64,000 nt of DNA from Minisyncoccota bacterium (GCA_031291875.1 JARLIE010000112.1:114-64113), one strand, 5' to 3'; positions 6,980 through 64,000 are shown, counted from the first letter of the stretch. Translations and numbers: made by a program. The notes: generated by a model not told the origin, from the letters alone.

Positions 6980-7113
6980 ACCTAGTCATTATGCTCCTTT
7001 CGAAAAAGAAAGCGAAAACCGACGTCTTGACTTCTTTTGGAGTGCTGCCATATTTTGCCTTAGACCGTCTTCCGACGTGACCTAGAGCGAAAATTCCTAC
7101 CGAGGAGGGTTCG

Positions 7114-7371: not shown

Positions 7372-7399
7372 TCTGCGAACTGATCACCACTGATCGATG

Positions 7400-7505
7400 A
7401 GCGGGCGACACTGTCGCCCGTTTCGATTTATATACAAAACAATTTCCGAGCGTAATTTTCAGCAGACAAATACGAAAAAGGTCGCCAAAAATGGCGACCT
7501 TTTTC
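7400..7505. terminator. Two convergent hairpin terminators between the luxR-like gene (+) and rpoC (-)
   Basis: GGGCGACActgTCGCCC followed by GTTTCGATTT on the plus strand, and GGTCGCCAaaaaTGGCGACC followed by TTTTTCGTATTTG on the minus strand. Confidence 0.6.
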
Positions 7506-7523
7506 AGCGTAACCCTGTAGAAC

Positions 7524-10500
7524 CTAGCGCTCTACCGTATCGCGATTGCGCTCGATCGACGGAACGTCGACCGGTTGCTGGGATCGGAGATCCGCTTCCA
7601 TTTGCTCGACGAGGTCGAACTTCTTGGAACCGGCGAATCCGGTACCGGCCGGGATAAGGCGACCGATGATGACGTTCTCTTTGAGGCCGACCAGGCGGTC
7701 GACCGCTCCCGAAACCGCCGCTTCGGCGAGTTTGCGAGGCGTGTTCTGGAAGGAAATTGCGGAGAGGAAGGACGCGCGAGTGAGGGAGACTTCGGTGATA
7801 CCGAGGAGCAATTGCTTGCCCTTTGCCGGCTCTTTTTCCGACTCTTTCGCCTCGCGGTTCAAACGCTCGAACTCAAAGTCCGCGACAATTTCGCCGACAG
7901 AAACACTGGTGTCGCCTGCGTTCGTGATCGAAACGCGCGAGAACATCTGCTTGACGATGATTTCAAGGTGCTTGCGCGCCGTTGAAACACCCTGCAATTC
8001 GTAGATGCGAGTGATTTCGCCAATGATGTACTCCTGCGCGCGTTCCTTGCCCGCGAAGAGGAAGAGCTCGTCGAGGTCTGCCGAACCGTCGGTGAGGAAG
8101 TCGCCCTTTTGGACAGAGTCCCCTACCTTCACCACGATCGCGCGAAGTGGGTGGATTCGATACTCGGTTTCTTTCTTGACGCCCTTTGCTGTTTTGGCGG
8201 TAGAAGCGGTTTCCGGAACGATCGTAATGACCGTTTCGTCGCCGTCCTTTTGGATATCTGCGATAACACCAGAGACTCGGGCGATCGCTGCTGGGAGCTT
8301 CGGTTGGCGCGTTTCGAAGACTTCTTCGACGCGCGGAAGACCCATCGTGATGTCACCACCTTGCGTCGCGACACCTCCAGTGTGGAAGGTACGCATCGTA
8401 AGCTGGGTACCCGGTTCGCCGATCGCTTGCGCGGCGATAACGCCTACCGCTTCGCCGACATCGACGAGTTCCTGAGTTGTGAGGTCGAGACCATAGCACT
8501 TTTGGCAAACACCTCGAGCGACTTTGCAGCCGATCGGTGAGCGAACGATCGCTTCCACGACGCTCGTATTCTCTTCGATCGCCTTAGCGTCGTCGCGAGA
8601 GACGAGGTGGCCACGCTTGAAGCCGCCCGCTTCTTCAGCGAGCACTCGGCCCGCGAGACGGTCGGCGAACGAGCCGCCGAGTGTTTCCTTGCCCGGACGA
8701 ACGATCGTGACGCCATCCTTCGTACCGCAGTCTTCTTCGAGCACAACGACATCGTGCGCAACATCGAAGAGACGACGAGTGAGGTAACCGGCGCGCGCCG
8801 TGTTGAGCGCAGTGTCGGCGAGACCCTTACGGGCGCCGTGCGTTGAGATGAAGTACTCGATCGGTGTGAGACCTTCCTTGAGCGAGGCGGTAATCGGGAA
8901 TTCGATGATTTCGCCGCGCGGGTTGGTGATGAGACCCTTCATGCCCGCCATTTGGTGGAGCTGTACGACGCTACCACGAGCGCCTGAGGTGATCATGTCG
9001 TGAACTGGACCGTTTCTGTCGAGCGATTCGACAACGTGCTTGCGCAGGTCATTGGAAACTTTCGCCCAGATTTCGATTGTCATGCGCTTGCGCTCTTCTT
9101 CGGTGAGAAGACCCTGTTCGTAGTTTTCGTTCTCACGAGCGACCGCTTCGCGGCCCGCGTTGACCATTTCTTGTTTAATCTCCGGAACAACGACGTCCGA
9201 GAGCGACCACGTGATACCAGCTTCGGTCGCGTAGCGGAAGCCAAACTTCTTGATCTTGTCGAGGATCTGCGGGATGCCGTCGAGCTTGTAGTGCGTAACG
9301 AGCGAGTGCACGAGGGCTCGCATGCGAGAACTCGTGATTTCTTCGTTGAGGTACGGGAAGTCTGTCGGAAGGACGGAGTTGAAGAGAAGTCGGCCGACGG
9401 AAGTCTCGAAGATCTTGCCCTCGAAGTGCTTGTACTTCGCGCTGTCGGACGGGAGAACCTTGATCTTTGCGCGCAAATCGATCGCGCCAAAGTCGTGGGC
9501 GGTGATTGCGGCATTCGTAGATGGGAACGCTGAGCCTTCGCCCTTCGCGCCCTCCATGGTCTTTGTCATCCAGTAACAGCCGAGCACGATGTCGAGCAGC
9601 TTGGATGCGACAACGACGTCACCAGAACCCGGCTTCAAGACGTTCTTGTTGGCCGACATGATCTTGGCGGCTTCGAGCTGAGCGGCTTCGGAAAGCGGCA
9701 CGTGTACGGCCATCGCGTCGCCGTCGAAGTCGGCGTTGTATGCCGGACAGACGAGCGGGTGAACCTGGATCGCGTTGCCTTCGATGAGAACCGGGCGGAA
9801 CGCCTGGATCGATTGGCGGTGAAGTGTCGGAGCGCGGTTGAGGAGGACATACTTGCCCTTAATCGCCTCTTCGAGAATCGGCCAAACTTCCGGTGCTTCG
9901 TCTTCAATCAAACGTCCAGCGCCACGAATGTTGTACGCGTGTTCGCGAGCAAGAACACCCTGGATGACGAACGGACGGAAGAGTTCAAGCACCATGTGCT
10001 TCGGCAAACCACACTCGTCGAGCGCCAAGTCCGGACCGACAACGATGACCGAGCGGCCCGAGTAGTCGACGCGCTTACCGAGGAGGTTTTGGCGGAGGTA
10101 GCCGTGCTTACCCTTGAGGTAATCAGCGAGCGACTTGAGCGCGCGGCGGCGTCCACCGAAGATACCCAAGACACCTGCGCCGCGGCGCATCGAGTTGTCG
10201 AGGAGTGCGTCCACTGCTTCCTGCAAAATGCGCTTTTCGTTGCGGAGAATGACTTCCGGCGCGTGGATTTGCTGGAGGCGCTTCAAGCGGTTGTTACGGT
10301 TGATGACGCGGCGGTAGAGGTCGTTGAGGTCGGAAGATGCGTGACGACCACCTTCGAGGGCGACCATCGGACGAAGCGCCGGCGGAACGACCGGGAGGCG
10401 TGTCATGAACATCCACTCCGGGCGGACACTCGCGCGGCGAAGGTTCTCAGCCAGCGCAAGGCGCTTCCTGAGTTTGTCCTTCTCTGCGGCACCTGAGTTT

Positions 10501-11225
10501 TCGTACTCTTCCTTCACACGTTTTACGAACGCGGTAAGGTCGATTTTCTTCAAAATTTCATAGAGCGCTTCAGCGCCGATCGCGGCGCGGAACATCGCGC
10601 CGTATTTGACTGCGAACAAGTGGTAGGCGGCTTCATCGAGAACGATACCGATCTGGATTGAATCGATTTCTTTCTTCGCCTTGGTGGCCATGTCCTTGAG
10701 GCGCGTCTTTTCGTCGGCGTTGGAGGCAGCCTTCGTTTTGGTCGCGAGCTCCTGCTCGAGATCCTTCAAAAGGCGGGCGCGCTCGTCTTCGTCGATCGAG
10801 GTGACGATGTAGCCAGCGAAGTACACGACTTTTTCAACTTCGGCAGCGGAGAGGCCGAGCATCAACGCGATGCGCGACGGGATGCCGCGGAGGAACCAGA
10901 TGTGTGCAACGGGGGTCGCAAGGTCGATGTGACCCATGCGCTCGCGGCGCACGATGGCGCGGGTGATCTCGACACCACACTTCTCACAGACGATGCCGCG
11001 GAAACGGATGCCTCGATATTTGCCACAGTAACATTCGTAGTCTTTTTCAGGACCGAACACACGCTCGTCGAAGAGGCCGTTCTTTTCCGGTCGCTGAGTG
11101 CGGTAGGTGATGGTTTCAGGTTTGGTGATTTCACCGTAGGACCAATCGAGAATTCGCTCGGGAGAAGCCAGACGCATCGCGACTGCTTCGAAATCCTGCG
11201 GGATGTTGTCTTTTTTCTTTTGCAT
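7524..11225 (-). CDS. rpoC: DNA-directed RNA polymerase subunit beta' (RpoC)
   Basis: The N-terminal zinc-binding region, [12 protein letters not shown] catalytic motif and trigger-loop regions are conserved over 1233 aa. Confidence 0.97.
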
Positions 11226-11233
11226 ATGCGTGA

Positions 11234-14200
11234 TTACTGGTTAGCCTCATCGCCGATAAATTCGATATCGATGCCCAAGCCTCGCAAGTGTCTGACCAAG
11301 ACATTGAAGGTCGCGGGTGTGTTGGTTTCTTCGATTCGTTTGCCGGAGACGATCGCGTCGAACGCTGCAGAGCGGCCGAGGATGTCGTCCGATTTGATGG
11401 TGAGGATTTCGCGCAGCGAGTATGCAGCGCCGTAGCCGAGGAATGCCCAGACTTCCATTTCTCCAACGCGCTGACCGCCGTTTTGAGCTTTGCCGCCGAG
11501 CGGTTGCTGCGTCGTGAGCGAGTAGGGCCCGATCGAGCGCATGTGGATCTTGTCTTCGACCATGTGGTGCAGCTTGAGCATGTACATGACGCCGACCATG
11601 ACCGGTTGAGCGAACGATTCGCCGGTACGACCATCGAAAAGTACACGCTTGCCGTTCTCGTTGAGACCGGCCTTCTTGAGCTCTTCTTTGATCTCGACTT
11701 CAGTTGCCGAACCGAAGGAAGGAACGACCGCTTGATAGCCGAGCATTTCAGCGGCAAGACCAAGGTGCGTTTCGTAAATCTGTCCGAGGTTCATACGGGA
11801 CGGGACGCCAAGCGGTGTGAGGATGATGTCCACCGGGTTGCCGTTTTCATCGTACGGCATGTCCTCTTCCGGCAAGATGCGGGAAATGACGCCCTTGTTG
11901 CCGTGACGGCCGGCGAGCTTGTCGCCGACGGAGATGGTGCGCAACTGCGCAACTTCCACGTGCACACGCTTGATGACACCGGATTCGAGCTGGTCGCCGT
12001 TTTCGCGTGAGAAAATCTTCACGCCGACGATGCGACCGCGTTTGCCGCCTTCCATGCGAAGCGAGGTGTCTTTCACGTCCTTCGCTTTCTCGCCGAAGAT
12101 TGCGTGCAAGAGACGCTCTTCCGGTGTGAGCTGCGTCTCGCCCTTGGGCGTTACTTTACCGACGAGGATATCGCCGGGGCGTACCTCGGCGCCGATGCGG
12201 ATTATGCCGTCTTCATCGAGGTTGCGGAGTTTAAATTCGGAAACGTTCGGAATGTCATGGGTCGTGACCTCGGGCCCAAGCTTGGTGTCGCGCACCACGC
12301 AGACGAACTCCTCCATGTGAATGGAAGTGAACTTCGCCTCTTTCGCGAGTTTTTCTGAAATAACGATGGCGTCTTCGAAGTTATTCCCGAACCAAGGCAA
12401 GAACGCGACACGAACGTTTTGACCGATCGAGAGCTGGCCGCCGACCGAGGTCGATGCGTCCGCGAGGACCGCGCCCTTCTTAACTGTTTCGCCGACCGAA
12501 ACGAGCGGGCGCTGGTGGAAGGTCGTGAAGCCGTTGGTGCGGGAGAAATTCACGAGCTCGTACTCTTTTGTCTTGCCGTCTTGGTTTTTGACCTTGATCT
12601 TTTGCGCGTCCGAGTAAATCACCTCGCCCGCATCTTCTGCGATAACGAGACGACCGGAGTCTTTAGCCGCAGCGGATTCAACGCCGGTTGCAACAACCGG
12701 TGCTTCCGGTACAACGAGCGGAACGGCCTGCTTTTGCATGTTCGAACCCATGAGCGCTCGGTTCGCGTCGTCGTTTTCAACGAACGGAATCAAGGATGTC
12801 GCCACGGAGAACGGCTGGTTGGTCGCGACCTCGATGTAGTCCACGTCGGTGTTCTTCACGAGCGTCGGCTTGCCATTCTTACGAACTTCACTGAACTTCT
12901 CGGTGAGCTTGCCGTCGTCGTCGCGAGCTGTAGCTGCGTGTGCGATTGCATATTGCTCTTCCTCGAGCGCGTTCATGTACTTGATCTCCTTGGTGATGAT
13001 GCCGTTTTCCACCTTCGCATACGGCGTCTCGATAATGCCGAATTCGTTGGGGCGGGAGTAGAGCGACATGTGCAATACGAGTCCGATGTTCTTACCTTCA
13101 GGGGTGTGGATCGGACAAACGCGACCGTAGTGGGACGAGTGAACGTCGCGCACTTCGAGGCCGGCGCGCTCAGAGGTGAGACCGCCGCGACCGAGCGTTG
13201 AGAGCGTGCGAAGGTGCTCGATCTCGTCGAGGATGTTGTATTGCTGCATGAGCTGCGAGAGCTGGTCGGTCGTGAAGAACTCACGAATCGCGGCCTGGAA
13301 CGGGCGCGGGTTGATGAGCGAGACCGGGAGCGTTGTCTCCGGGTCGACCATCGCCATGCGGTCTTGGATGTTGCGCTTCATGCGAGAGAGGCCGACGCGC
13401 ATGCGCTGTTCGAGCAATTCGCCCGCAAAACGTACGCGACGGAAACCGAGGTGGTCGATGTCGTCCGGTTCCGCGTGCAGGTTGGTGTTCAGCTCCGCGA
13501 TGTGGACGATAATGCGCTCAAGCGTCTCGAGGTCGAGGGTCGATTGCGCAAGGTGCTTCTCGTCGGTCGGGAGGCCGAAGCGGCGGTTGAAGTGGAATCG
13601 ACCGACCTTCGAGAAGTCATATCGTTCCGAAGAAAGAATAGCGTCGACGTGGTCGCGCGCTGATTCTGCGGTCGCAATGTCGCCGTCGCGAAGGCGGCGG
13701 TAGATCTCGACATATGCCTCTTCCACGCTCTTTGCGTGGTCGAGTTGGAGCGAAGCCGCGATGGTCTCGCGAGCTGCTGTCTTGCCGAATTTATTGAGGA
13801 TTTGAGCGTCAGAACCGAGGCCAAGGACACGGAGCAACGAGGTGATTGGGAAACGGCGTTTGCGGTCGATTTTTACGTAGATGCCGCCGTCCGGGTCGGA
13901 TTCAATTTCAATCCAAACACCGCGGGCCGGAATAACCTTCGCCGCGTAGTAGTTTTTGCCTTTGTACGGGATACCTTCAAAGAAAACACCGTAGCTGCGG
14001 GCAAGCTGCGGTACAACAATGCGTTCGACGCCGTTGATGATGAACGTGCCGTGTGGAGTCATCCACGGGAAATCAGCGAGGAAGATTTCCTGTTCCTTTT
14101 TTTCTCCGGTCGTTTTGTTTTTGAGACGAACTACCATCGAAAGCGGCGCCTCGTAGGTGCGCATCAGTTTTTTTGCGTTCTGTTCGTCGATGCGAAGATC

Positions 14201-14410
14201 GGCAAAGCTGAACTTAACGAGTTCGAGCTCGAACTTCTTGCCCGAGTGATCGGAGATGGGAGAGAATTCCTTGAAGACGCGCTCGGCGCCTCCTTCAACG
14301 AACTCGGTGAACGATGCGATCTGGCTCTCGACCAGCGACGGCATCTTTACGAGCGGCTCGCGGAACTTACCGAAGAACTTTTGCGGACGCGCAACTTTAG
14401 CTTTTGACAT
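11234..14410 (-). CDS. rpoB: DNA-directed RNA polymerase subunit beta (RpoB)
   Basis: 1058 aa with RpoB signature regions such as GRHGNKGV..., NMQRQAVPL-like and the fork/clamp regions. It lies immediately upstream of rpoC on the same strand. Confidence 0.97.
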   Translation of the reverse strand: MSKAKVARPQKFFGKFREPLVKMPSLVESQIASFTEFVEGGAERVFKEFSPISDHSGKKFELELVKFSFADLRIDEQNAKKLMRTYEAPLSMVVRLKNKTTGEKKEQEIFLADFPWMTPHGTFIINGVERIVVPQLARSYGVFFEGIPYKGKNYYAAKVIPARGVWIEIESDPDGGIYVKIDRKRRFPITSLLRVLGLGSDAQILNKFGKTAARETIAASLQLDHAKSVEEAYVEIYRRLRDGDIATAESARDHVDAILSSERYDFSKVGRFHFNRRFGLPTDEKHLAQSTLDLETLERIIVHIAELNTNLHAEPDDIDHLGFRRVRFAGELLEQRMRVGLSRMKRNIQDRMAMVDPETTLPVSLINPRPFQAAIREFFTTDQLSQLMQQYNILDEIEHLRTLSTLGRGGLTSERAGLEVRDVHSSHYGRVCPIHTPEGKNIGLVLHMSLYSRPNEFGIIETPYAKVENGIITKEIKYMNALEEEQYAIAHAATARDDDGKLTEKFSEVRKNGKPTLVKNTDVDYIEVATNQPFSVATSLIPFVENDDANRALMGSNMQKQAVPLVVPEAPVVATGVESAAAKDSGRLVIAEDAGEVIYSDAQKIKVKNQDGKTKEYELVNFSRTNGFTTFHQRPLVSVGETVKKGAVLADASTSVGGQLSIGQNVRVAFLPWFGNNFEDAIVISEKLAKEAKFTSIHMEEFVCVVRDTKLGPEVTTHDIPNVSEFKLRNLDEDGIIRIGAEVRPGDILVGKVTPKGETQLTPEERLLHAIFGEKAKDVKDTSLRMEGGKRGRIVGVKIFSRENGDQLESGVIKRVHVEVAQLRTISVGDKLAGRHGNKGVISRILPEEDMPYDENGNPVDIILTPLGVPSRMNLGQIYETHLGLAAEMLGYQAVVPSFGSATEVEIKEELKKAGLNENGKRVLFDGRTGESFAQPVMVGVMYMLKLHHMVEDKIHMRSIGPYSLTTQQPLGGKAQNGGQRVGEMEVWAFLGYGAAYSLREILTIKSDDILGRSAAFDAIVSGKRIEETNTPATFNVLVRHLRGLGIDIEFIGDEANQ

Positions 14411-53511: not shown

Positions 53512-54159
53512 TTAGCAACCGACCGTAGCGTATTTCCCCATACCGACAAAGACCGCATTGTGTCCGGAGCTGCATTGCCCGTTGGTGACGGTCCCGCAGC
53601 GACCGCTGTAATTGTCGACGTACCCGGTCGGAAAATCGTCCATATTTTCAGGCGTTCGCCAAACCAAGACGCAATAGTCATCCGCTCCGTAGGTGTCTTG
53701 GTAGAGATACCCTGCATCGCCGCCGATGTTTTTGGGATCGGCAAGCGGAGAGATATACGGCGCGAGAACCTGTGAAAGTGTGCCGATTTGTATTGAGCCG
53801 TTGGGCGTCGAGCAAAGTTGCTTCGGCGCATATGCTCCACTATCGAAGCTGCTCCAAACACCTAACGCACCGCTGCAGCTGTAGGGGTAGTGGCCAGTAG
53901 TGGCATGGTAGAGCTCGAGTGCGTTTTGGAACGATCGCATATCCTCAAGCCGTTTCGCGTCGCGAGATTTGTAGCGACCATTATTTAGGCTCGCGAGAAT
54001 AATGCTCGCAAGTAAACCGATGAGCGCAATGACGACCAAGAGTTCGATGAGGGTGAACCCCCGTTCGAGCGAGGTGATCGTGAGCTTTTTTGCAAGACGA
54101 ATATCAGATTCATTGACGTTTGTCGCAAAATTCCTCGAGAGAGTCTTCATAAAATCCAT
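53512..54159 (-). CDS. Type IV pilin / pseudopilin-like protein with a long leader (prepilin signal ...LERG|FTLIELLVVIALIGLLASI)
   Basis: N-terminal methylation/cleavage motif GFTLIEL followed by a hydrophobic helix. Four Cys in the C-terminal domain. Located between the tktN and tktC genes with 1-7 nt gaps. Confidence 0.75.
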   Translation of the reverse strand: MDFMKTLSRNFATNVNESDIRLAKKLTITSLERGFTLIELLVVIALIGLLASIILASLNNGRYKSRDAKRLEDMRSFQNALELYHATTGHYPYSCSGALGVWSSFDSGAYAPKQLCSTPNGSIQIGTLSQVLAPYISPLADPKNIGGDAGYLYQDTYGADDYCVLVWRTPENMDDFPTGYVDNYSGRCGTVTNGQCSSGHNAVFVGMGKYATVGC

Positions 54160-54160
54160 A

Positions 54161-55021
54161 CTACTGGTGTTCGCTTTGGATTTTACCACCCATGGTTCGC
54201 AACTCATTCAGAAAGACGTTGCCCTCCTCTTGCGTCGGCGGCTTACCGTGCCACCGATAATCACCTTCGATTTCTTTGATGCCTTTGCCGGGGATCGTGT
54301 GGGCGATGATGAGCGTCGGTTTTTCCGCGATCGCCTTCGCCTCGTCGCACGCGGCGATGAATTGCGGGATATTGTGACCGTCGACTTCAAGCACGTGCCA
54401 GCCGAACGCTTCATACTTCTCGCGCAACGGTTCGAGCGGCATGATCGACTCGGTGTAACCGTCGATTTGGATATTATTGCGATCAATAATCCCCGTGAGG
54501 TTCGAGAGCTTGTTGGCACCGGCGAACATGATCGCTTCCCAGGTGTTGCCCGCGTCGTGTTCGCCATCGGACATCGCACAATAAATCCTAACCTTCGAAG
54601 CATCCATGCGCGCGGCGTATGCCATCCCGGCAGCTTGCGAAAGACCTGAGCCCAAAGGGCCGGAGGTGGTTTCGAGTCCGGGCAAGCGAACGCGTTCGGG
54701 GTGCCCTTGGAGACGAGAGCCGAATTTGCGTAGGGTCAGACACTCTTCAACCGGAAAGTAGCCGGCATGCGCCATTGCCGCGTAGCGCACGGGTACGATG
54801 TGACCATTGGAGAGCACGAGTCGATCACGCTGCGGGTGCTCGGGATTTTTGGGATCGTGCACGAGCACGTGGAAATAGAGCGCGGTAAAAATATCTGCCA
54901 TGCCCAAGGGCCCTGCGGTGTGTCCGGAACCGGCGGCAACCAGCATCTCAATGATCGTTTGCCGTAGCTCGTTCGCTTTGCTGGCGAGCGCTTTTGCTTC
55001 GGAATCCGTGAGGGGTTCCAT
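54161..55021 (-). CDS. Transketolase, N-terminal (thiamine-diphosphate-binding) subunit
   Basis: GSGHTAGPLGMADI, SNGH, GPLGSGLSQAAGMA and DGEHDAGNTWEA are TPP-binding motifs. Confidence 0.88.
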   Translation of the reverse strand: MEPLTDSEAKALASKANELRQTIIEMLVAAGSGHTAGPLGMADIFTALYFHVLVHDPKNPEHPQRDRLVLSNGHIVPVRYAAMAHAGYFPVEECLTLRKFGSRLQGHPERVRLPGLETTSGPLGSGLSQAAGMAYAARMDASKVRIYCAMSDGEHDAGNTWEAIMFAGANKLSNLTGIIDRNNIQIDGYTESIMPLEPLREKYEAFGWHVLEVDGHNIPQFIAACDEAKAIAEKPTLIIAHTIPGKGIKEIEGDYRWHGKPPTQEEGNVFLNELRTMGGKIQSEHQ

Positions 55022-55223: not shown

Positions 55224-55886
55224 TTATAGCCCGCTTTGCGCGCTTGAGACCAACGTTTTATACACACTCGCGGGATCTTCTGCGTGAGAGAGCGCCGAAC
55301 CGACAGCAAAACGTCTTGCGCCGGCGCGGGCGAGCGTCGCTATTTGCGTCACGCCAATCCCGCCGTCGACCTCAATCATGAGTTCGGGATACCTCGCGTG
55401 TAAATCGGCTACCCTGCCGTAGGCTCGCTCATCGAACGGAATCCCCTGTACGCCGATGCGCGGTATAGACATAAGCGTGACGCAATCGCACGAGAGCACG
55501 AAGGGCTCGATCGTCTCGAGCGGTGCGTCGATGAGGAGTGCGATGCCTACCTCCTTCGCACCGTTTGATTTCCAGGCGTCGAACGCATGCTTTGCCTCGT
55601 CTTCGGATTCAAACGCCATCGCGTGGGCGATAATGCGCTTTGCGCCGGCAGCTACGAATGCGTTGCCAACAGCTTCCGGATGTTCAACCATCAAGTGTGC
55701 TTCGTAAAAGTACTCATCCGACTCGGGAAATCGGATTCCCGCCGGCGGCATCCAGGTTACATTCGGAGCGAATATGCCGTCAGCCGCGTCGACATGGAAC
55801 GTACGCGCGAAACCGCGAGATCGTTCGAAAAACGCGTCGATGTCCGCAGGCGAATTGGGTACAACAGTGGGAACAACCTCAATCAT
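55224..55886 (-). CDS. rpe: Ribulose-phosphate 3-epimerase
   Basis: HVDAADGIFAPN, metal-binding His/Asp, and the C-terminal GG..G phosphate-binding region. Confidence 0.85.
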   Translation of the reverse strand: MIEVVPTVVPNSPADIDAFFERSRGFARTFHVDAADGIFAPNVTWMPPAGIRFPESDEYFYEAHLMVEHPEAVGNAFVAAGAKRIIAHAMAFESEDEAKHAFDAWKSNGAKEVGIALLIDAPLETIEPFVLSCDCVTLMSIPRIGVQGIPFDERAYGRVADLHARYPELMIEVDGGIGVTQIATLARAGARRFAVGSALSHAEDPASVYKTLVSSAQSGL

Positions 55887-56374
55887 GCGAGTTCATCGAT
55901 CTGGCCGATGCGGCGCAGGTGGCGTTCGTCGTTCGGGAATTCGGTCGTGAGGAATTCGCGAACCGCGTCTTTGGCCTCGTCGAGCGATATAAAGCGGTAG
56001 CCGAAGCTCAGCGCGTTAGCGTCGTTGTGTTCACGTGCGGATCGGATGACATCCAAATGATTCCCCTGCATGTCGGTTTGTTCTCGGGATGCTTTGCCAT
56101 AGTAGAGCGCACAGCGAACGCCGCGAAAACGATTCGCCATCATCGCTTCTCCTTGGCCAGAGCCGCCGCCGAGAATCGCTCGGCTCTCGATGCCCGCAAG
56201 CGCGTCGGTAGAAAGCTTATGCGCGGCTTTCGAAATGATCGGCGGATAATCATCCGATGGATCGAGCTCGAATGCGCCGCAATCCTCAACGACGTGCCCG
56301 AGCTCTTGTACGAAGCGCATGAGCTCGCCTTTCATCTCAAACCCTCCATGATCGGCCGCGAAGTAGACTTTCAT
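55883..56374 (-). CDS. rpiB: Ribose-5-phosphate isomerase B (RpiB/LacAB family)
   Basis: MKVYFAADHGGFEMK, CG.G.G, and the C-terminal His region. Confidence 0.85.
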   Translation of the reverse strand: MKVYFAADHGGFEMKGELMRFVQELGHVVEDCGAFELDPSDDYPPIISKAAHKLSTDALAGIESRAILGGGSGQGEAMMANRFRGVRCALYYGKASREQTDMQGNHLDVIRSAREHNDANALSFGYRFISLDEAKDAVREFLTTEFPNDERHLRRIGQIDELA

Positions 56375-57391
56375 TTAGAGATGCTTTGTCGTTTCCGCAA
56401 CGTGCTCGACTAACGTGTGCACATACCCCATTTCGTTGTCGTACCACGCGAGAACCTTTACGAGGTTGCCGTCGATCACGCGTGTGAGGCCAAGATCCGC
56501 GATTGAGCCGTACGGCTCGCCGAGGATGTCGGATGAAACGAGTTCTTCTTCGGTGATGGTGAAGATTCCCTTCCAGCGATCCTGTGAGGCGGCGTTCTTG
56601 AGTGCCTGATTCACCTCTTCGACCGTGGTCGGGCGCTTCGCGATAAAGGTGACATCCGCGATAGAACCGGCCGGAACCGGAACGCGCAGTGAAATCCCGT
56701 CGAATTTCCCCTCAAGCGCCGGGTAGGCTTTGGTTACCGCAATTGCGGCGCCCGTGGAGGTAGGGACGATGTTGAGCGCAGCAGCGCGGCCTTCTTTCAT
56801 GTCTTTCTTGGAGGGTCCGTCGACGATCGCCTGGGAAGCTGTGTAGCCGTGCGTCGTGGAAAGCACTGCCTTTTCGATACCGATCGCCTCATCGAGAATC
56901 GCGATGACCGGAGAAGCTGCATTGGTGGTGCAGGATGCGTTGGAGGTAACAGAAACACTAGCGAAACGGTCGTTGTTGATGCCCATCAAGATCGTCGCGC
57001 CGGGAGTGGTGCCGTCGCCGTCCTTGGCCGGAGCTGTGATAACGACGCGCTTGGCGCCCGCAGTAAGGTGCGCGCCCGCTTTGGAGTAGTCGGTAAAAAG
57101 ACCGGTGGATTCAACGACAACGTCGACGCCGAGGTCTTTCCAAGGCAGGTGTGCCGGGTCCTTTTCAGCGAGAATTTTGATCTCCTTGCCGTCGACGATA
57201 AGGGCCCCTTCCTTAAAGGAGACGGAAAACGGCGCCTTTTTGTATACCGAGTCGTATTTCAATAAATAAGCCAAATTTTCGGGGGTCGTGAGGTCGTTGA
57301 TCGCAACGATTTCTATCTCAGAACGTCCGTGGGCTGCCCGTAAAAAACCTCGGCCAATGCGGCCAAAACCGTTAATCGCTATTTTTGCCAT
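56375..57391 (-). CDS. gap: Glyceraldehyde-3-phosphate dehydrogenase, type I
   Basis: INGFGRIGR (NAD binding), SNASCTTN (catalytic Cys), WYDNEMGY. Confidence 0.95.
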   Translation of the reverse strand: MAKIAINGFGRIGRGFLRAAHGRSEIEIVAINDLTTPENLAYLLKYDSVYKKAPFSVSFKEGALIVDGKEIKILAEKDPAHLPWKDLGVDVVVESTGLFTDYSKAGAHLTAGAKRVVITAPAKDGDGTTPGATILMGINNDRFASVSVTSNASCTTNAASPVIAILDEAIGIEKAVLSTTHGYTASQAIVDGPSKKDMKEGRAAALNIVPTSTGAAIAVTKAYPALEGKFDGISLRVPVPAGSIADVTFIAKRPTTVEEVNQALKNAASQDRWKGIFTITEEELVSSDILGEPYGSIADLGLTRVIDGNLVKVLAWYDNEMGYVHTLVEHVAETTKHL

Positions 57392-57457
57392 AGGGCTATC
57401 CTAGCATGGCAATTTTTGTGTCCTTTTAAACGCCTGTGAATGGTGCCCATTCACAGG

Positions 57458-60400
57458 TTACGGAGTTGTTGAGGTCGCACTGGTGCTTGTTGAGCTTGAG
57501 GTAGATGTTGAAGCTGTAGTCACTGGAGTGCTGGTGCTCGTTGAAGATGGCGTCGAGGTACTGCTTGAACTGGTCGAGGTCGCGCTCGTCGAAGTGCTCG
57601 TGGAACTCGTCGAGGTCGCAGCGTTCGGATCGACAACGTTCACAATGCGGGTCGCCGTGCCAGTGAGGCCGTTTTGGTCGGTCGCACTATAGACGATGGT
57701 GTGTTGGCCCGCGACCGAGGTGTCGATCGTGATTTGCGACATCGGAGTCGAGGTGGCGCCATCTACCGATGCAGTGATGCCGAGGTTCAAGTCCCCCGTC
57801 GGACCGGTGATCGTTGCGCCAAGGTCGTTGTACGTTGCACCAACATTCACGCTCGCGGGATTGTTGCCGTTCACCTGCAAGACCGGCGAAGTCGAGACAC
57901 TCGAGCTCGTGCTGCTCGAGGTCGACGAACTTGTGGTCGAACCAGTGGAGCTGCCGCTACCTGCGCCCGAGAGCAGCTGATCGAGCTGCGCCTTGGTTAC
58001 GCACGTCTGTGCGCCGGTCGAGTCGGAGATGCAGAGCTTCTGGGTGTCGACCTCGTTGGCATGGACAACCTTGGCGTAGAAGTCCTGGATCGTGTTGCCC
58101 GCATCCGCAAACCAGCTTGCGAGCGCCGATTTGACCGCCGAGAGGAAGCCTTGATCGAGAACCGGCGTCGTGCTCGTCGAGGAGGTCGCGGAGAACGAGT
58201 ACGGGAAGGCGGTAATGCAAGAGCCGTTGAGACAGAGCTTCGCGTTGGTCGTCGTCGCGGCCGTCGAGGTGCCGATGCCGAGGTCGCCGAACTGATCGAT
58301 GACGACGGCTGGCGTCGAAGTCCCCTCGTAGATCGAGATAATGCTCGGCATGGTCGTCGAGGCGTACGTCGCGTTGAAGACACTATTGATGTCTTGGATC
58401 GACTTCGTGAGGTACGGCGTGAAGCCGGCGTAGTTGAGGAGCAAGGTTCCGTTGTCGGACGACGTGACGAGATCCGGCAAGACCTGCTGTACCTGCTGCG
58501 CGATGAAACCGGAGTGCTGCGGCGTGCCGGTCGTTTCTGATTTCCAGTTGTAGTAGACCGGGTTGAGTTCCAAAATGTCGGTGAGCGCGGAAGAGGTCGA
58601 GATCGAATTGATGTTCTTCTTGAGCGTGATGTCGGAAGAACAGTTCACGCTGCCAGCAGTCGGATTGATCGTACATTCGCCGTTGGCGTTCTCGAATCCG
58701 GCGACGACACCGGAGACATTCGAGCTTCCGACTGTGAGAAGGTACGGCGCCGAGCTCGTGCCGATGCTCAAGCTGTTATTGAAGCTTCCAACGCCGTTGG
58801 AGTTGATTGAGAAGGCTGAGACGGACGAGGTTGCGGAGAAGGTCGAAGTTGCAACGTAGAGGTTGTTGCCGACAGAGCGGAAGGTCCAGGCGTTATCGGC
58901 GGCCGAGCCGTCGGCGAGCGCAAGTTGCGGGCCAGTGCTAGAAGCGATTTCAAGCGAGACTGAAGGAGTAGACGTACCGATGCCAACGTATGCGTTGGTG
59001 CTGCTACCAATCGAGTAGAGCGTGAGCGCCGTGCCGTAGGCCCCGGTCGTGCTGTTGTAAGCATTGAAGTTGAGGTTGGTGTTCAAGGTGGTCCCGACCG
59101 GAATCATTTCAATGTTCCAGTTGGTAGTAGTCGAGATGCTGCCGGTCCATGCGTTGCCGGAGAAACGCAAGCGCGGGGAGATTTGAACTGGTGCGCCAGC
59201 AGTCGCACCGGTGTTGTTCTGTAAAATCAAACCATCACTTGAGGTCGTGACAATGTTTGCGCGCGTAAGTGTTTCAATGTTGTTAACTGCAAGTGTTGAG
59301 TTGGCGGTAAACGCACCGAGCGCCAAAACAGGCGTGCCGAAGTGGGTAGTTGAAGTAAGACCAGTCGTTTGTCCGGTGGTCTGAGCAGTGGAATACGGCA
59401 TCGCATAGCCACCTGGGTTCAATTGCGCGCCCCAGGCGACGATCGTTTGCTTGTCGTTGCCGATCGTGACTAACGCTTTGGTATCAGAGCTCGAAGGGTT
59501 GTTTTGAATAACATCGAATCGTCTCCATTGCGACGTAATCGTCACAACATTGGCGGTACCGGTCGTGGTCGCCGTGCCAGTGCCCCAATCGACTTCAAGC
59601 GAAGTAGTTGCGGTGCCGCTCGCCGCGCGCAAGTAGACACTGAATGTCCAGCTGCCTGTAGTGCCGGCCGCGTTTACGAATTGGACAAGCTTTGATCCGC
59701 TTGCGGTGCCGGCGAGCTGCTGCGCCGTCGCCCCGCCACGAGGGTCGGTTTGCGAAGCAGTGATCGTTTCACTCGTTGCCGTCCACGTCGGACTAGAGTT
59801 GAAGGTTTCGGTTTGGAGCAGGTAGTTTTGGTACAGACCGACGTTTAGGAACGGACTGTCGATGTTGTAGAGCTCGGCGACGCTCGTGGTGCCGTTGAGT
59901 GCATCGATCGGCGCGATTGGGTCGGTGCGACCAAAACCGACATTACCTGCTTGCGAGATATGGAAGACGGAACCGCCGGAAGAGCTGGCCACATCGAGAA
60001 GCTGCGTTGCGGTCGAGAGACCCTGGATCGCGAACGAGGCCGCGTCCGTACTGGTGCCGACGGAGACGACGCCGTTTTGGTTGACCCCTCCGACAAAGAA
60101 CGAAGGTGTCGAACTGCCGGTGTTGGAAACAATGAATGCGGTCGGCAAGTTACCAATTTCTACGGCAAGTTTTGCGTACGAGGTAGTGGTGCCAATGCCA
60201 ACCAGGCCGACCGAAGAGTTTGTCGTCGAAATATTGAAGATCGGAATATTCGAGCTTGAGGTCGCGATTGAGAAAGCGTTTTTGGAGTTGTTCGGGACGA
60301 TAATGTCTGACGACGTTCCGAAGGTAAACGTGCCGTTGTCCTGGATAGTAAAGAGTGGGTTGTTGGAGGCGTCGGCTGCGGCAAAAGCATAGCCGGTGCC

Positions 60401-63400
60401 CAACGTGTCGGGGCCGCTGACCGAGAGCTTGGCCCACGGGCTTGTGGTGCCGACACCGATCGTTCCGGCGTTGGAAACAAAGAGTGTCGAGGTGCCGCTA
60501 ACGATTGCGCCGTTTGCCGCGTAGAACGCGAATTGTCCTTGCGTACCCGCGTTCACGCTCGGCGCGCCGCCGCCGGAAATACAGACGCCGTTATACGCAT
60601 AACAGCCGCTCGTGATATTGATGCCGCCGGTCGTCGAGAAGGTCGAGGTTGCGGTCGAGAAGTTGATGCCGTTGGTGTTGCCGATCGAGAAGAGTGAACC
60701 CGGGGTCGTCGTGCCGATACCGATGCTACCGGTTGAAAGGAAGCTGCCGCTGCCATTGAGACCAGTACCGTAAATAATATTACCGATATCGAGCTGGTTG
60801 GAGGCGGTCGTAGATGCAGCAGTAAGGCTGTTGCCGATCAAAATATTGTTAGTGCCGGTGGTGATACTGGGGTCGCTAAAATCATTTGAACCAAGGACGA
60901 TGTTGTGATTGCCGGTTGTAATCGTGCTTCCCGCAGCATTACCGATCAAGATGTTGTAATCTGAACCAGTCTGAGCATCAATGCCTGCATTGACGCCGAT
61001 GTATACGCCGCCCTGGTTGGAATAATTACCGGTGCCCGCGCCAGCACCGGCACCGATTGCGACCGTATTGGTCGCGGATTGATTATAGAAGAGTGCCGAA
61101 CTGCCGACTGCGACATTGGAATTGCCCGTAGTGTTGTTGGACAATGCACTGTTGCCGAGAGCGGCGTTGTTACCACCAGTGGTATTGAAATACATCGAAG
61201 ACACGCCGATCGCTTCGTTATTGGAACCCGTCGTGTTGTTGAACAATGAATATGCCCCGAAGATTGAGTTGCTACTGCCAGTCGTGTTATTGAATCCTGA
61301 TTGGAGACCGAAGAACGAGTTGGTATTTCCGATAGTGTCGTTATATCCCGATTCATAGCCAACGGTCGTGTTGTTGCTACCAGCTTCATCGTTAACATGA
61401 AGGAGTGACAAGAAACCGATTGCAGTGTTTCCCGTCGAAGAGGTGGCACTCTGGAGCGCGCCGTATCCAAAGAGTGTGTTCCCGGTTTGCGTTGTTGTGG
61501 CGAGTAGGCTTTGGCCGGCCGTGAGCCCAGCGATCGTTATACCGTTCGTGCTCGACGCGGTGAGGAGTGTAGTCCCATTCAATTGGTAGGTTCCGTTTGA
61601 TTGCACGTTGACCGTATTGAAGGCACCGGCACCGGCGTCGGTGAAGCTGCCGACGACCGTCGACGACGCTTGCGAAACGAAGCCTTGGCCGAACGTTTGG
61701 AGCGCGCTCCAGTTGGTCGCGATGGCGTTGAGACAATTTCCGCCAATTGCATAGCAGCCGTTTGCGAGGTTGAATCCGCCGCTCGTGTAGAACGTCGAGG
61801 TTGCCGTCGTGAAGTTGGCGACGTTATTGATCGCGAAGATAGAGCCAGGAGTCGTCGTGCCGATACCAATGTTGCCTGTTGAAAGAATGTTACCAACGCC
61901 TGTATTACCGGTGCCGAAGAGTATATTTTGGATATTGAGCTGACCGTTCGCCGTCGCTGATGGGAGTGCCAAGTTGGAGCCGATCAAAATGTTCTGTGAA
62001 CCGGTCGTAAGGTTGTTGATACCCGGCGTTGATGTTGCTGTGCCAATGATGACGTTGTTACTGCCGGAGGTGATACCGAAGCCCGCTTGGTAGCCGAGCA
62101 GTGTATTGAAGTCGGAACCGTTTCCGAATGAGAGGCCCGCCTGATACCCAACGACCGTGCCACCTTGGTTCGAGAATTGAGAAATGCCGGAAGCTGCGCC
62201 GAAACCGATTGCCACCGTATTCGTCGCGGAAACGTTGCTGTAGCCGGCGCTCAGACCGATACCGACGTTTTGGCTTCCGGTAGTGTTGAGCATGAATGTT
62301 TGCGAGCCGACACCAAGGTTATTACTACCAGTCGTGTTGTTGTAAAACGCATTCGTGCCGAAAGCAGAGTTATTGGAACCTTGATTGTATTTCAACGAAC
62401 CATCGCCCAAAGATGTGTTCGACGTAGTCCATGAACCGCCCAATGATTGAGAATCAGTTCCGATCGCAACATTGTAGGTACCAGTCGCGTTGTCGAGGAG
62501 CGCGTTACTACCGGCTGCAATGTTATATGAACCGGTCGTGTTGTTGATAAGCGCGAGCGAGCCAAGCGCAGTATTCTCGATGCCGCTCGTGTTCAGATTG
62601 AGCGCCCAAGCGCCGAGCGCGGTGTTGTGATCACCGGAAGAGTCGGCAGCAATTGCACCGAAACCAACCGCCGTGTTGTAACCAGTATGAAAGACGGTCG
62701 AACTGCCTTGCAATGCGGCAGTACCAACCGCGGTGTCATACAGGGATGTTGTCGCATATTGGAGTGCGTTGTAACCGATAGCAGTGGCAAAGTTGATAGC
62801 CGAGGTCAGATTTTGTCCTGCATTCAACCCGACCTCTGTTGAACCATTGGTCGTTGACGCATTGAGCAACAAGCTGCCGCCAAGCTGGTAGCCGCCGGTC
62901 GTCGGCGATGTGTTGATGAAGCCAGTCGTCGTGAGATTGCCGCCGATCGTCGCCGCACCGGAAGTCTGCAGGGTTCCGGCTGCGGTGTTGAGAACGCCGA
63001 GACCCAAACCTCCCGTAAAGTAGCCGTTGCCGATAACCGAAAGATTCGTTACCGGAGACGAGGTGCCAATACCGAGGTTGCCTGCGGCGGTAAGGCGCAT
63101 GCGCTCAAGCGTGCTGTCTGTGGTGCCCGGAAGACCGCTGAGTGTGTAGAACGCGAGATCGGTATTTTGCGCGCGCCAGTAGTTGCCCGCGCCGCCACCT
63201 GCGTTGATCGCCAAGTTGACTGCGGCGATCTTCGCGCCGATCGTGTCGTTTTGCACGTCGCGGTAGCTGGAGAAAACTATTTGATCGATTGACGAGGTCG
63301 CATTGAGTGCAACGTTGGTCGGGCCAGGGTTGATTCCACCGATACGAAGCGAAGTGGTCGTCGCGGACGAGTTGTTGTCGAGCGTCGCGAGCTCGAATGG

Positions 63401-64000
63401 ATTACGCGGGTTGGTCGTCCCGAGGCCAAAGAAGCCGCTGCCTTGCTGGAGCACGAGCTGCGAGTTGCCGATAGTGAAGCCTTGTCCCGCGGCGATGGTT
63501 GAGGTTCCGCTTGTACCGGCCAAAGCGATTGTGCCTGCCGTTGTATTGAGAGCGCCAACACCGAGACCACCGGTCGCGTACGCATTACCAGCGACAGAAA
63601 GGTTTGTCGCAGGCGAGGTCGTACCGATGCCGAGGTTACCGTTAGCGTCGAGACGCATGTACTCGCTTTGGTTTTTTCCGAACGTGATTACATCCGAGCT
63701 CTGATTACCAAACTGGATGTACCCCATGTCGGTGTTGTCGACACGACGCTGGATGCGCCATGAAGTCGTCGTCCAGTCGGTGCCGCCGGCACTCGAGCGG
63801 ATCGCGGAGGTAAAGAGGCTATCCACATTGGCGTCTGTAACCATAAGACGAGAAAGCGTCGTTGTGGAATAGGCGGTAGTCGGAAGCGCACCACCACTTA
63901 CGAGGAACTTCGAACTCGGCGATCCGCTTTCGGAAGAAAGACCTACGAGAACCGAGCCGCCGTTCGTCGCGAGTGTGACGCCGTTTGCAAACGTTGAGGT
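57458..64000 (-). CDS. Giant secreted repeat protein (>2180 aa; 5' end beyond the window): tail-fibre-like GIGTTxP repeats, YadA-head-like NxAxG repeats, intramolecular chaperone/peptidase S74 domain, Big-like/S-T-rich C-terminal tail
   Basis: The minus-strand frame stays open past 63844 to the window end. Recurrent NLGIGTTSPxxxLSV modules. Long runs of ~14-aa N[TS]AxG / NNTTGxxN repeats. SSDITLKKNINSI...LNPVYYNWK matches the S74 intramolecular-chaperone Ser-Lys motif. C-terminal SSTSSS/TSTS low complexity. Confidence 0.8.
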   Translation of the reverse strand, partial: TSTFANGVTLATNGGSVLVGLSSESGSPSSKFLVSGGALPTTAYSTTTLSRLMVTDANVDSLFTSAIRSSAGGTDWTTTSWRIQRRVDNTDMGYIQFGNQSSDVITFGKNQSEYMRLDANGNLGIGTTSPATNLSVAGNAYATGGLGVGALNTTAGTIALAGTSGTSTIAAGQGFTIGNSQLVLQQGSGFFGLGTTNPRNPFELATLDNNSSATTTSLRIGGINPGPTNVALNATSSIDQIVFSSYRDVQNDTIGAKIAAVNLAINAGGGAGNYWRAQNTDLAFYTLSGLPGTTDSTLERMRLTAAGNLGIGTSSPVTNLSVIGNGYFTGGLGLGVLNTAAGTLQTSGAATIGGNLTTTGFINTSPTTGGYQLGGSLLLNASTTNGSTEVGLNAGQNLTSAINFATAIGYNALQYATTSLYDTAVGTAALQGSSTVFHTGYNTAVGFGAIAADSSGDHNTALGAWALNLNTSGIENTALGSLALINNTTGSYNIAAGSNALLDNATGTYNVAIGTDSQSLGGSWTTSNTSLGDGSLKYNQGSNNSAFGTNAFYNNTTGSNNLGVGSQTFMLNTTGSQNVGIGLSAGYSNVSATNTVAIGFGAASGISQFSNQGGTVVGYQAGLSFGNGSDFNTLLGYQAGFGITSGSNNVIIGTATSTPGINNLTTGSQNILIGSNLALPSATANGQLNIQNILFGTGNTGVGNILSTGNIGIGTTTPGSIFAINNVANFTTATSTFYTSGGFNLANGCYAIGGNCLNAIATNWSALQTFGQGFVSQASSTVVGSFTDAGAGAFNTVNVQSNGTYQLNGTTLLTASSTNGITIAGLTAGQSLLATTTQTGNTLFGYGALQSATSSTGNTAIGFLSLLHVNDEAGSNNTTVGYESGYNDTIGNTNSFFGLQSGFNNTTGSSNSIFGAYSLFNNTTGSNNEAIGVSSMYFNTTGGNNAALGNSALSNNTTGNSNVAVGSSALFYNQSATNTVAIGAGAGAGTGNYSNQGGVYIGVNAGIDAQTGSDYNILIGNAAGSTITTGNHNIVLGSNDFSDPSITTGTNNILIGNSLTAASTTASNQLDIGNIIYGTGLNGSGSFLSTGSIGIGTTTPGSLFSIGNTNGINFSTATSTFSTTGGINITSGCYAYNGVCISGGGAPSVNAGTQGQFAFYAANGAIVSGTSTLFVSNAGTIGVGTTSPWAKLSVSGPDTLGTGYAFAAADASNNPLFTIQDNGTFTFGTSSDIIVPNNSKNAFSIATSSSNIPIFNISTTNSSVGLVGIGTTTSYAKLAVEIGNLPTAFIVSNTGSSTPSFFVGGVNQNGVVSVGTSTDAASFAIQGLSTATQLLDVASSSGGSVFHISQAGNVGFGRTDPIAPIDALNGTTSVAELYNIDSPFLNVGLYQNYLLQTETFNSSPTWTATSETITASQTDPRGGATAQQLAGTASGSKLVQFVNAAGTTGSWTFSVYLRAASGTATTSLEVDWGTGTATTTGTANVVTITSQWRRFDVIQNNPSSSDTKALVTIGNDKQTIVAWGAQLNPGGYAMPYSTAQTTGQTTGLTSTTHFGTPVLALGAFTANSTLAVNNIETLTRANIVTTSSDGLILQNNTGATAGAPVQISPRLRFSGNAWTGSISTTTNWNIEMIPVGTTLNTNLNFNAYNSTTGAYGTALTLYSIGSSTNAYVGIGTSTPSVSLEIASSTGPQLALADGSAADNAWTFRSVGNNLYVATSTFSATSSVSAFSINSNGVGSFNNSLSIGTSSAPYLLTVGSSNVSGVVAGFENANGECTINPTAGSVNCSSDITLKKNINSISTSSALTDILELNPVYYNWKSETTGTPQHSGFIAQQVQQVLPDLVTSSDNGTLLLNYAGFTPYLTKSIQDINSVFNATYASTTMPSIISIYEGTSTPAVVIDQFGDLGIGTSTAATTTNAKLCLNGSCITAFPYSFSATSSTSTTPVLDQGFLSAVKSALASWFADAGNTIQDFYAKVVHANEVDTQKLCISDSTGAQTCVTKAQLDQLLSGAGSGSSTGSTTSSSTSSSTSSSVSTSPVLQVNGNNPASVNVGATYNDLGATITGPTGDLNLGITASVDGATSTPMSQITIDTSVAGQHTIVYSATDQNGLTGTATRIVNVVDPNAATSTSSTSTSTSATSTSSSSTSTPSSTSTSTPVTTASTSTSSSTSTSATSTTP

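Follow-up and report, generated by a model that had tools for sequence, protein, structure and literature searches.

A giant S74-chaperone fiber protein predicted from a Kaiserbacteria-like Patescibacterium carries a conserved immunoglobulin-like domain behind its chaperone

RESULTS

A giant reading frame runs off the end of the window

At one end of a 64,000-nucleotide (nt) stretch of DNA from a Minisyncoccota bacterium (GCA_031291875.1 JARLIE010000112.1:114-64113; the whole stretch is hereafter called the window), we find a giant open reading frame (ORF) on the minus strand whose product we read, with slightly better than even confidence, as an exported cell-surface fiber of a Kaiserbacteria-like Patescibacterium: a chromosomally encoded protein that would be built from phage-fiber-type modules and matured by a C-proximal S74 chaperone. 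The frame stretches from 57458 to the window edge at 64000 and holds 2180 sense codons followed by a stop codon (57458-57460), an open run with a chance probability of ~1e-37 at the base composition of the window. Because there is no upstream stop and no start codon before the first in-frame one (an ATG at 63844), the gene extends past the window edge and its N-terminus is missing here; a sequence-only reading of this DNA had already noted that the gene runs off the window. Residue numbers refer to the translation of window:57461-64000:-, where residue i begins at nt 64000-3(i-1).

Serine, threonine, glycine, alanine, and asparagine account for 61% of the visible 2180 amino acids (aa) and charged residues for 5.9%, all 10 cysteines fall in five close pairs, and a scan of the visible sequence for a membrane helix found no 19-residue stretch that is hydrophobic enough. 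Judged from the sequence, the combination of paired cysteines, low charge, and lack of a transmembrane-like segment is an extracytoplasmic signature. Seven copies of the GIGTxxP-type motif lie in the ORF, and the 694 other open six-frame segments of the window contain none, which bears out the GIGT-type repeats of the sequence-only reading. A Pfam scan of the protein returned only Peptidase_S74 and Bact_surface_Ig-like, the latter an immunoglobulin (Ig)-like domain, at an expectation value (E) ≤ 1, and NCBIfam held no family model for it. The visible protein divides into the following parts.

57458..64000, minus strand: the giant ORF as a whole, 2180 codons plus stop; N-terminus beyond the window edge
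62993..64000, minus strand: aa 1-336, two modules that each close in MRL..GNLGIGTxSP; GIGT motifs at aa 121 and 307
61727..62992, minus strand: aa 337-758, solenoid module A with 17-residue N-x-A-x-G...NTTG repeats; GIGT at aa 709, Cys 749/756 at the end
60575..61702, minus strand: aa 767-1142, solenoid module B; GIGT at aa 1091, Cys 1133/1140
59849..60574, minus strand: aa 1143-1384, short shaft modules; GIGT motifs at aa 1179 and 1265
59351..59848, minus strand: aa 1385-1550, orphan globular insert, a candidate ligand-binding domain
58637..59350, minus strand: aa 1551-1788, stalk leading into the chaperone; GIGT near aa 1673; ends in the Cys1776-Cys1787 loop CTINPTAGSVNC
58355..58636, minus strand: aa 1789-1882, S74 intramolecular-chaperone core; Ser1789 at nt 58634-58636, Lys1794 at nt 58619-58621
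58154..58354, minus strand: aa 1883-1949, lineage-specific insert; degenerate GDLGIGTST motif, Cys 1923/1928; low-confidence model
57959..58153, minus strand: aa 1950-2014, helix (WFADAGN..DFYAK), Cys hairpin, and second helix; Cys1990...Cys2000 in LCxxxxTCVTKAQLDQLL
57890..57958, minus strand: aa 2015-2037, Ser/Thr/Gly-rich linker
57626..57889, minus strand: aa 2038-2125, Ig-like domain (PF16403); predicted local distance difference test (pLDDT) 85-95
57461..57625, minus strand: aa 2126-2180, disordered Ser/Thr-rich tail ending in TSTTP, without hydrophobic or sorting motif

The S74 domain carries the catalytic Ser-Lys dyad of a self-cleaving chaperone

The motif SDITLKKNINSI at aa 1789-1800 (nt 58601-58636) stands at the head of a full-length match to Pfam Peptidase_S74 (PF13884; aa 1789-1846, model positions 1-58 of 58, 57.5 bits against a cut-off of 22, E = 1.7e-15). 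The profile search supports the motif, and with it the earlier view of a giant fiber- or adhesin-like ORF with an S74 domain. Upon aligning the C-terminal region of the window protein with 23 relatives (24 sequences, alignment A1), we found S1789, D1790, L1793, K1794, G1831, A1834, Q1835, and P1842 to be invariant. A Ser-Lys dyad has been defined at S911/K916 in endoNF and at S587/K592 in MyRF (PMC8326128). The corresponding pair here, S1789/K1794, lies five residues apart, is kept in 24 of 24 sequences, and aligns with the dyads of MyRF (7dc3) and of the S16 fiber (6f45). Alignment to the PDB sequence of MyRF equates S1789 with S587, K1794 with K592, Y1817/W1819 with Y615/Y617, and I1833/Q1835 with I637/Q639, such that Y1817, W1819, I1833, and Q1835 all fall on MyRF residues targeted by mutation in the neighborhood of its cleavage site. 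MyRF is cut on the N-terminal side of its catalytic Ser, and either S587A or K592A abolishes cleavage (PMC8326128). Since the MyRF cut has this position, we predict a cut at S1788|S1789, releasing 392 residues, with the stalk-end loop C1776-TINPTAGSVN-C1787 immediately ahead of it. As far as the sequence tells, the catalytic apparatus of the S74 core is intact, with one departure at position +3 that we return to below.

Structural modeling points the same way. An AlphaFold2 monomer model of aa 1750-2180 gave a pLDDT of 71-92 for the S74 core, which ends in a helix (aa 1858-1880) and displays the ICA fold, i.e., a β "donut" plus a C-terminal helix. The top Foldseek match of this C-terminal model in the PDB was the MyRF ICA domain itself (7dc3; E = 2.8e-4, target TM-score 0.55). 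In a library of viral structures (BFVD), 206 S74 fiber models matched at E ≤ 1e-3, each over 85-181 columns, which corresponds to the chaperone alone. With phage S74 fibers such as endoNF, the T5 L-shaped tail fiber, and S16 (6f45), the window protein has in common the SDxxxK dyad, the NW(K) aromatic motif, and the GFIAQ motif, as well as the plan of a β-structured fiber with an S74 domain, which is trimeric in the phage proteins and presumably so here. In those phage fibers, however, the chaperone forms the C-terminal end, whereas the window protein continues for ~300 residues with an insert, a Cys hairpin, an Ig-like domain, and a Ser/Thr tail.

A cysteine hairpin and a highly conserved Ig-like domain follow the chaperone

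Counted from the end of the 58-residue Pfam match, 334 residues follow S74, in line with the ~330 given by the sequence-only reading; because the chaperone core runs to about aa 1882, the true extension is nearer 300 (~298 residues). Within it, C1990/C2000 form the second invariant pair of alignment A1, set in the motif LCxxxxTCVTxxQLxxLL, and the hairpin with its helices is modeled at a pLDDT of 81-88. The domain behind it matches Pfam Bact_surface_Ig-like (PF16403, formerly DUF5011; aa 2042-2122, 32.6 bits against a cut-off of 27, E = 8.6e-8). The "Big-like" region proposed earlier is thus Ig-like as stated but belongs to PF16403, not to Big_2 or Big_3; in Foldseek, the sandwich matched PKD, Rib, and Big-type (Big_3) Ig domains, all ranked below the MyRF ICA domain. 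The low-complexity tail was described correctly: Ser and Thr make up 64% of the last 80 residues (aa 2101-2180). Inside the tail-coding region lies an imperfect 36-nt tandem repeat (57551-57619; 1.9 copies, 81% match), possibly a site of length variation or of assembly breaks.

Across alignment A1, the Ig-like domain was the best-conserved segment of the C-terminal region, with a mean pairwise identity of 52%; the hairpin reached 44%, the core 42.5%, and the stalk 31%. Between Patescibacteria and Methylocystis, the Ig-like domain is 50-60% identical, while their shafts are unalignable.

A search with the Cys-hairpin and Ig segment for stand-alone modules returned only Ig-only proteins (67 matches of 82-244 aa). 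We rejected the idea that the post-chaperone module exists naturally as a separate gene, as the three Ig-only ORFs examined on long contigs (L089 10001-10597, L090 10001-10708, and L091 10001-10489) all proved to continue an S74 fiber gene lying upstream, as its frameshifted 3' end. At L089, the whole giant gene is split into six ORFs, the first of which is a piece with an HTH_17 domain. Short database proteins labeled as Bact_surface_Ig-like only appear to be gene-calling artifacts.

The extension is common among cellular relatives

With the S74 core as the query, 30,076 cluster representatives among 1.84 billion matched at E ≤ 1e-3. We evaluated the 146 nearest representatives, clustered at 50% identity. 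A median of 172 residues follows their S74 core, with more than 200 in 48 of them; the Cys hairpin is present in 80, and the same Ig-like domain in 44 (~30%), where it lies downstream of the S74 core in every case (44/44). Likewise, about 35 of the top 120 full-length homologs place S74 before the Ig-like domain. Named relatives are mostly Patescibacteria (Wolfebacteria, Kaiserbacteria, Paceibacterota, and Minisyncoccia), together with Methylocystis and Limnobacter. Several are annotated as "tail fiber domain-containing" or "immunoglobulin-like domain-containing" proteins, namely P0025 from Ca. Kaiserbacteria, P0043 from Methylocystis parvus, P0117 from M. hirsuta, and the metagenome proteins P0001/P0004. 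These share with the window protein the set of modules and the C-terminal order of S74, Cys hairpin, PF16403, and a Ser/Thr- or Pro-rich tail (36-45% identity over the shared parts) but differ widely in the length and content of the shaft (1300-3500 aa), and only the window protein has the orphan insert at aa 1385-1550. The window protein is one more member of a large, widespread, database-annotated family of cellular S74 fibers. In the searchable literature, we found no experimental characterization of P0025, P0043, P0117, P0001, or P0004, and no work linking S74 or intramolecular chaperones to Patescibacteria or the candidate phyla radiation (CPR).

Viral sequences gave a different picture. 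Among 50,697 phage genomes, 257 records matched the chaperone core only (26% of the C-terminal query) and none matched over the post-chaperone part. Viral contigs were covered by a single-protein scan and by a pattern scan, and the latter, run with the two most conserved Ig-subfamily patterns over 2.9 million IMG/VR contigs, yielded no confirmed locus. Given these negatives and the counts among the 146 representatives, the extension is a normal feature of the cellular family and, at the sensitivity of these searches, was not seen in phages. The architecture called atypical in the sequence-only reading is therefore atypical when held against the phage collections searched, but not within its own family.

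A side observation concerns the number of chaperones: 21 of the 146 nearest representatives carry two to four S74 cores per polypeptide (P0169, P0200, P0266, P0123, P0133, and 16 others). P0169, with 5473 aa, has four of them spaced ~1100 aa apart. By sequence, this suggests polyprotein-like fibers that could be cut into several pieces.

Proposed maturation and the role of the Ig-like domain

These data are consistent with the following scheme, in which the missing N-terminus would carry an anchor, as in the full-length relatives described below. Three chains would be exported, after which their C-proximal S74 domains would trimerize and nucleate folding of the shaft from the C-terminus toward the N-terminus. 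The Ser-Lys dyad would then cut between S1788 and S1789, leaving the disulfide loop CTINPTAGSVNC as the distal end of the mature fiber, and a trimeric fragment of 392 residues comprising the chaperone, Cys hairpin, Ig-like domain, and Ser/Thr tail would be shed. The orphan insert, which is CBM-like and would sit 240-400 residues behind the tip, would be the likely specificity element. The Ig-like domain would not recognize a host but would serve assembly or retention before cleavage, holding the last-exported C-termini at the surface of the producer so that they can trimerize. Because this domain is conserved above the core across unalignable shafts and is common to Patescibacteria and Methylocystis, such a generic pre-cleavage role seems most likely.

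Several observations weigh against this interpretation. The +3 Arg of the SDxRxK motif, present in at least 90% of the aligned relatives, is replaced by Thr1792 in the window protein (SDITLK). P0050, the relative closest in the C-terminal region, has the same SDxTxK variant, as do 18 of 171 related domains (~10%). In MyRF, where the equivalent residue is Arg590, an R590A mutation does not fully block cleavage but gives rise to aberrant extra cuts (PMC8326128); given Thr1792 at this position, the window protein may be processed less efficiently or in an altered way. Mean pLDDT across the AlphaFold2 model (aa 1750-2180) is only 65.7, with the insert at low confidence. Lastly, the proposed role of the Ig-like domain derives from the conservation pattern only, and an attachment function is suggested by the architecture and the lifestyle of the phylum.

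The main rival takes the altered motif as its starting point: S74 would act as a trimerization and folding module without efficient cutting, the hairpin, Ig-like domain, and a glycosylated Ser/Thr tail would stay in place as the distal tip, and the Ig-like domain would be the adhesin. Such a variant would explain why a domain otherwise destined to be discarded, which is not expected to be the best-conserved segment, is precisely that, and the Ig-like fold does resemble Rib, PKD, and SraP adhesin modules. Yet the dyad, the aromatic residues, and the Ile/Gln residues are conserved in every Ig-bearing relative aligned, and even MyRF R590A still cleaves (PMC8326128). A host-specific adhesin should moreover vary, whereas this domain keeps its 50-60% identity between Patescibacteria and Methylocystis. 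We consider a non-cleaving fiber tipped by the Ig-like domain unlikely, and retain the cleaved fiber as our working interpretation.

The gene lies among core chromosomal genes

The giant gene is followed, 66 nt downstream on the same strand, by the gene for GAPDH, with no intrinsic terminator-like site between the two. Beyond GAPDH come RpiB, Rpe, a split transketolase with a pilin-like ORF between its halves, FBA, and PfkB, and the remaining window encodes RpoB, RpoC, DnaE, GyrB, ThrRS, PheT, DnaG, RpoD, and SMC along with one tRNA-Thr. The 20 window ORFs scanned all encode housekeeping or cell-envelope functions, without a phage gene among them, and the 57 kb downstream of the giant gene is core chromosome, in agreement with the earlier remark that no prophage is seen in the window. 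A prophage origin was rejected on context, from the window ORFs scanned and the neighborhood of P0001. The gene also differs from phage fiber genes in being bacterial chromosomal, in its length (>2180 aa), and in not adjoining virion genes.

RpoB is 93% identical to that of a "Candidatus Paceibacterota" metagenome-assembled genome (MAG) and 82-87% identical to those of Kaiserbacteria and Parcubacteria MAGs. By these sequence matches, the host is a Kaiserbacteria-like Patescibacterium, a tiny and probably host-dependent bacterium. Several of the closest RpoB matches are labeled "uncultured Candidatus Saccharibacteria", others Kaiserbacteria, Parcubacteria, or Paceibacterota; the Saccharibacteria label may be generic. 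RpoB (1058 aa) and RpoC (1233 aa), together at window 7524-14410 on the minus strand, have sizes that in our judgment look compact for bacterial subunits. The pilin-like ORF is type IV pilin-like (window 53512-54207, minus strand; N_methyl motif, E = 4.7e-7) and separates the N- and C-terminal transketolase halves.

Homologs sit in varied surroundings. P0001 adjoins ATP synthase genes and two further giant surface proteins. The Methylocystis parvus homolog (1324 aa, with an N-terminal signal or transmembrane segment) overlaps a downstream GH5 cellulase gene by 4 nt (L088, CP187161.1, 10001-15417). With HsdR and ArdC genes close by, it suggests a mobile island, in a cultured methanotroph that would lend itself to experiments. 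The L091 homolog lies among relaxase, TrwB-like, and integrase genes. The L090 locus (ENA ERZ25073694 ctg113057) is syntenic with the window, as described below. In these four homolog contexts (P0001, M. parvus, L091, and L090), we found no virion structural genes.

This context bears on whether the gene could instead encode the tail fiber of a phage, prophage, tailocin, or extracellular contractile injection system (eCIS), i.e., a component of a particle. S74 is typical of phage fibers and the upstream flank lies outside the window; in PHROGs, moreover, the repeat modules match a virion structural family (E = 3.7e-35) and a tail-spike family (E = 1.1e-18), and the S74 region matches a long-tail-fiber distal-subunit family. 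Nevertheless, the 57 kb of core chromosome and the neighboring GAPDH gene speak for a cellular gene, as do the homologs: none of those examined falls in a phage structural cluster, two stand beside housekeeping genes (P0001 and L090), and the Methylocystis copy and L091 occupy mobile-element-like regions that lack virion genes. Relatives furthermore carry N-terminal signals or helix-turn-helix (HTH)-transmembrane anchors, and the post-chaperone module is absent from the phage genomes and from the IMG/VR pattern scan. A particle component is thus extremely unlikely.

The missing 5' end was also searched for but did not turn up in any collection covered. An exact 40-mer from the window end was absent from the genome contig and metagenome contig collections searched, and a metagenome scan with aa 1-300 as the query gave distant matches only. 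A Logan contig (L001; run SRR23300980, 1984 nt) is 100% identical to window 55671-57654 and was the only place where the exact GAPDH sequence turned up; it breaks within the Ser/Thr-tail coding region of the giant gene, and its run is a potential source for the missing 5' end.

The shaft is built of repeats and varies at a conserved locus

The shaft shows signs of internal duplication. Residues 115-268 are 39% identical to residues 301-432, and module B repeats module A within the same protein (42% identity over 433 columns). The NxAxG units recur every 17 residues (spacings 17, 17, 17, 17, 18, and 16), and in a model of the repeat module (alignment A2; pLDDT 71, predicted TM-score 0.71), each repeat contributes one strand to a β-solenoid. 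When ranking PDB folds against this model, we found CbpF first (E = 1.7e-3), then the YadA, BoaA, and UspA1 heads, with left-handed β-helix enzymes below these heads; all TM-scores are low at 0.18-0.42, with E up to 1.3. Like the heads of trimeric autotransporter adhesins (TAAs; YadA 1p9h, CbpF 9gh5, and BoaA 3s6l), the window repeats are Asn/Gly/Ala-rich short units that would form a β-solenoid; unlike them, their period is 17 and not 14, and TM-scores to the heads reach only 0.18-0.33. Hence, the NxAxG repeats reported earlier are real, but the TAA-head-like label attached to them is weak. Membership in the trimeric autotransporters was rejected, with no Hep_Hag or YadA_anchor match at E ≤ 1, a period of 17, and no PDB sequence match. 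The C-terminus consists of the Ig-like domain and a disordered Ser/Thr tail and is not a YadA-type β-barrel. Patescibacteria are not known to have the outer membrane that a TAA anchor needs. The modeled solenoid weakly resembles TAA heads in fold class, not in membership.

For the orphan insert (aa 1385-1550), a word-prefiltered search through 5.8 billion proteins gave no homolog at E ≤ 1e-3, and the top 120 relatives had no counterpart; its only match was a sub-threshold one to CBM_6 (E = 0.005, 17.6 bits against a cut-off of 28.9).

The syntenic locus L090 allowed us to compare positional homologs. Its giant S74 gene and the Ig ORF (together 691-10708) are followed by a β-lactamase-like gene, GAPDH, a pilin-like gene, RpiB, Rpe, and transketolase, so that the pilin-like gene stands between GAPDH and RpiB instead of within transketolase. 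GAPDH is 88% identical to that of the window and the C-terminal S74-Cys hairpin-Ig module 54% identical, while the shafts share a few short segments and are otherwise nearly unalignable. As far as these sequences go, the locus is conserved but the fiber shaft is hypervariable between positional homologs. The first ~700 nt of L090 have a GC content of 62% and carry an OmpA-like gene on the opposite strand, which may reflect a chimeric assembly; because this part is compositionally foreign, the N-terminus of the L090 protein is unreliable.

Such variability also bears on a structural role, in which the protein would be an envelope or sheath component, or a matrix or biofilm fiber, without any part in host contact. 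Relatives in the free-living Methylocystis and Limnobacter would fit this, as would a composition that is that of a generic β-solenoid. But the shaft is nearly all different between positional homologs whose GAPDH is 88% identical, and an orphan insert is present, a pattern that typifies receptor-binding proteins subject to diversifying pressure, not housekeeping proteins of the envelope. We regard a purely structural fiber as quite improbable.

Full-length relatives start with two types of anchor

Full-length S74-Ig relatives begin in one of two ways. In the first, a signal- or transmembrane-like hydrophobic segment lies within aa 1-25 (P0013, P0043, P0117, and P0153). In the second, an HTH_17 domain comes first and a hydrophobic helix lies behind it, at about aa 65-225. 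The HTH_17 start occurs in 23 of 266 relatives; 13 of the 23 carry S74 and the Ig-like domain as well, among them the closest full-length homologs (P0001, P0004, and P0003). HTH_17 is excisionase/MerR-like; one of four N-termini tested passed the Pfam threshold, and the other three fell just below it. Giants with this start, which reach up to 7275 aa, include P0001, P0003, P0004, P0009, P0041, P0053, P0103, and P0135, as well as P0139, P0181, P0188, P0207, P0216, P0224, P0248, and P0258.

The order of HTH, transmembrane helix, fiber, and S74 (often with an Ig-like domain) in these relatives recalls MYRF, in a different domain order. MYRF is a eukaryotic transcription factor of the endoplasmic reticulum (ER) membrane; a transmembrane helix comes after its S74 domain, and its DNA-binding N-terminus is released. 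As in the window protein, the S74 domain of MYRF (MyRF ICA, 7dc3) is internal, with further domains after it; in the window protein, by contrast, S74 would be extracytoplasmic and is followed by an Ig-like domain, and MyRF Arg590 is replaced by Thr1792.

Two ideas follow the MYRF comparison further. In one, the C-terminal Ig-like domain and Ser/Thr tail would hold the protein to the cell, and autocleavage would free the N-terminal fiber into the medium or onto a host, just as the non-terminal S74 of MYRF, whose ICA domain is the best structural match here, frees an N-terminal trimer from a C-terminal anchor. The last 300 residues, however, contain no transmembrane segment and no C-terminal sorting motif of the LPXTG, PEP, or PGF type, and the membrane anchors of relatives are N-terminal, not C-terminal, which leaves such a release very improbable. 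The other, a more speculative joint proposal, is that the window protein begins with a cytoplasmic HTH_17 domain and one transmembrane helix like P0001, P0004, and P0003; that fiber contact, tension, or a second cleavage is relayed to gene expression; and that the shed chaperone-Ig trimer is itself a functional product. All of this together is a long shot. If true, it would describe single-polypeptide devices that couple a giant S74-matured extracellular fiber to a DNA-binding domain, a prokaryotic counterpart of MYRF.

DISCUSSION

Patescibacteria are thought to live attached to other cells. To our knowledge, their contact molecules are almost unknown outside Saccharibacteria. An episymbiont surface fiber is plausible here because the host is a Patescibacterium. 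The window protein is to be taken as a representative example among many database entries and not as a discovery in its own right, but it helps to define what cells add to the S74 chaperone, namely, a Cys hairpin and a highly conserved Ig-like domain. Since cultured Methylocystis carry the same C-terminal module, the role of this post-chaperone domain is open to experiment. On the evidence of its sequence, a Kaiserbacteria-like lineage would use the building blocks of phage fibers, including an S74 chaperone that is predicted to cleave itself, for a chromosomally encoded surface fiber, and the hypervariable shaft at a conserved locus fits a function in partner recognition.

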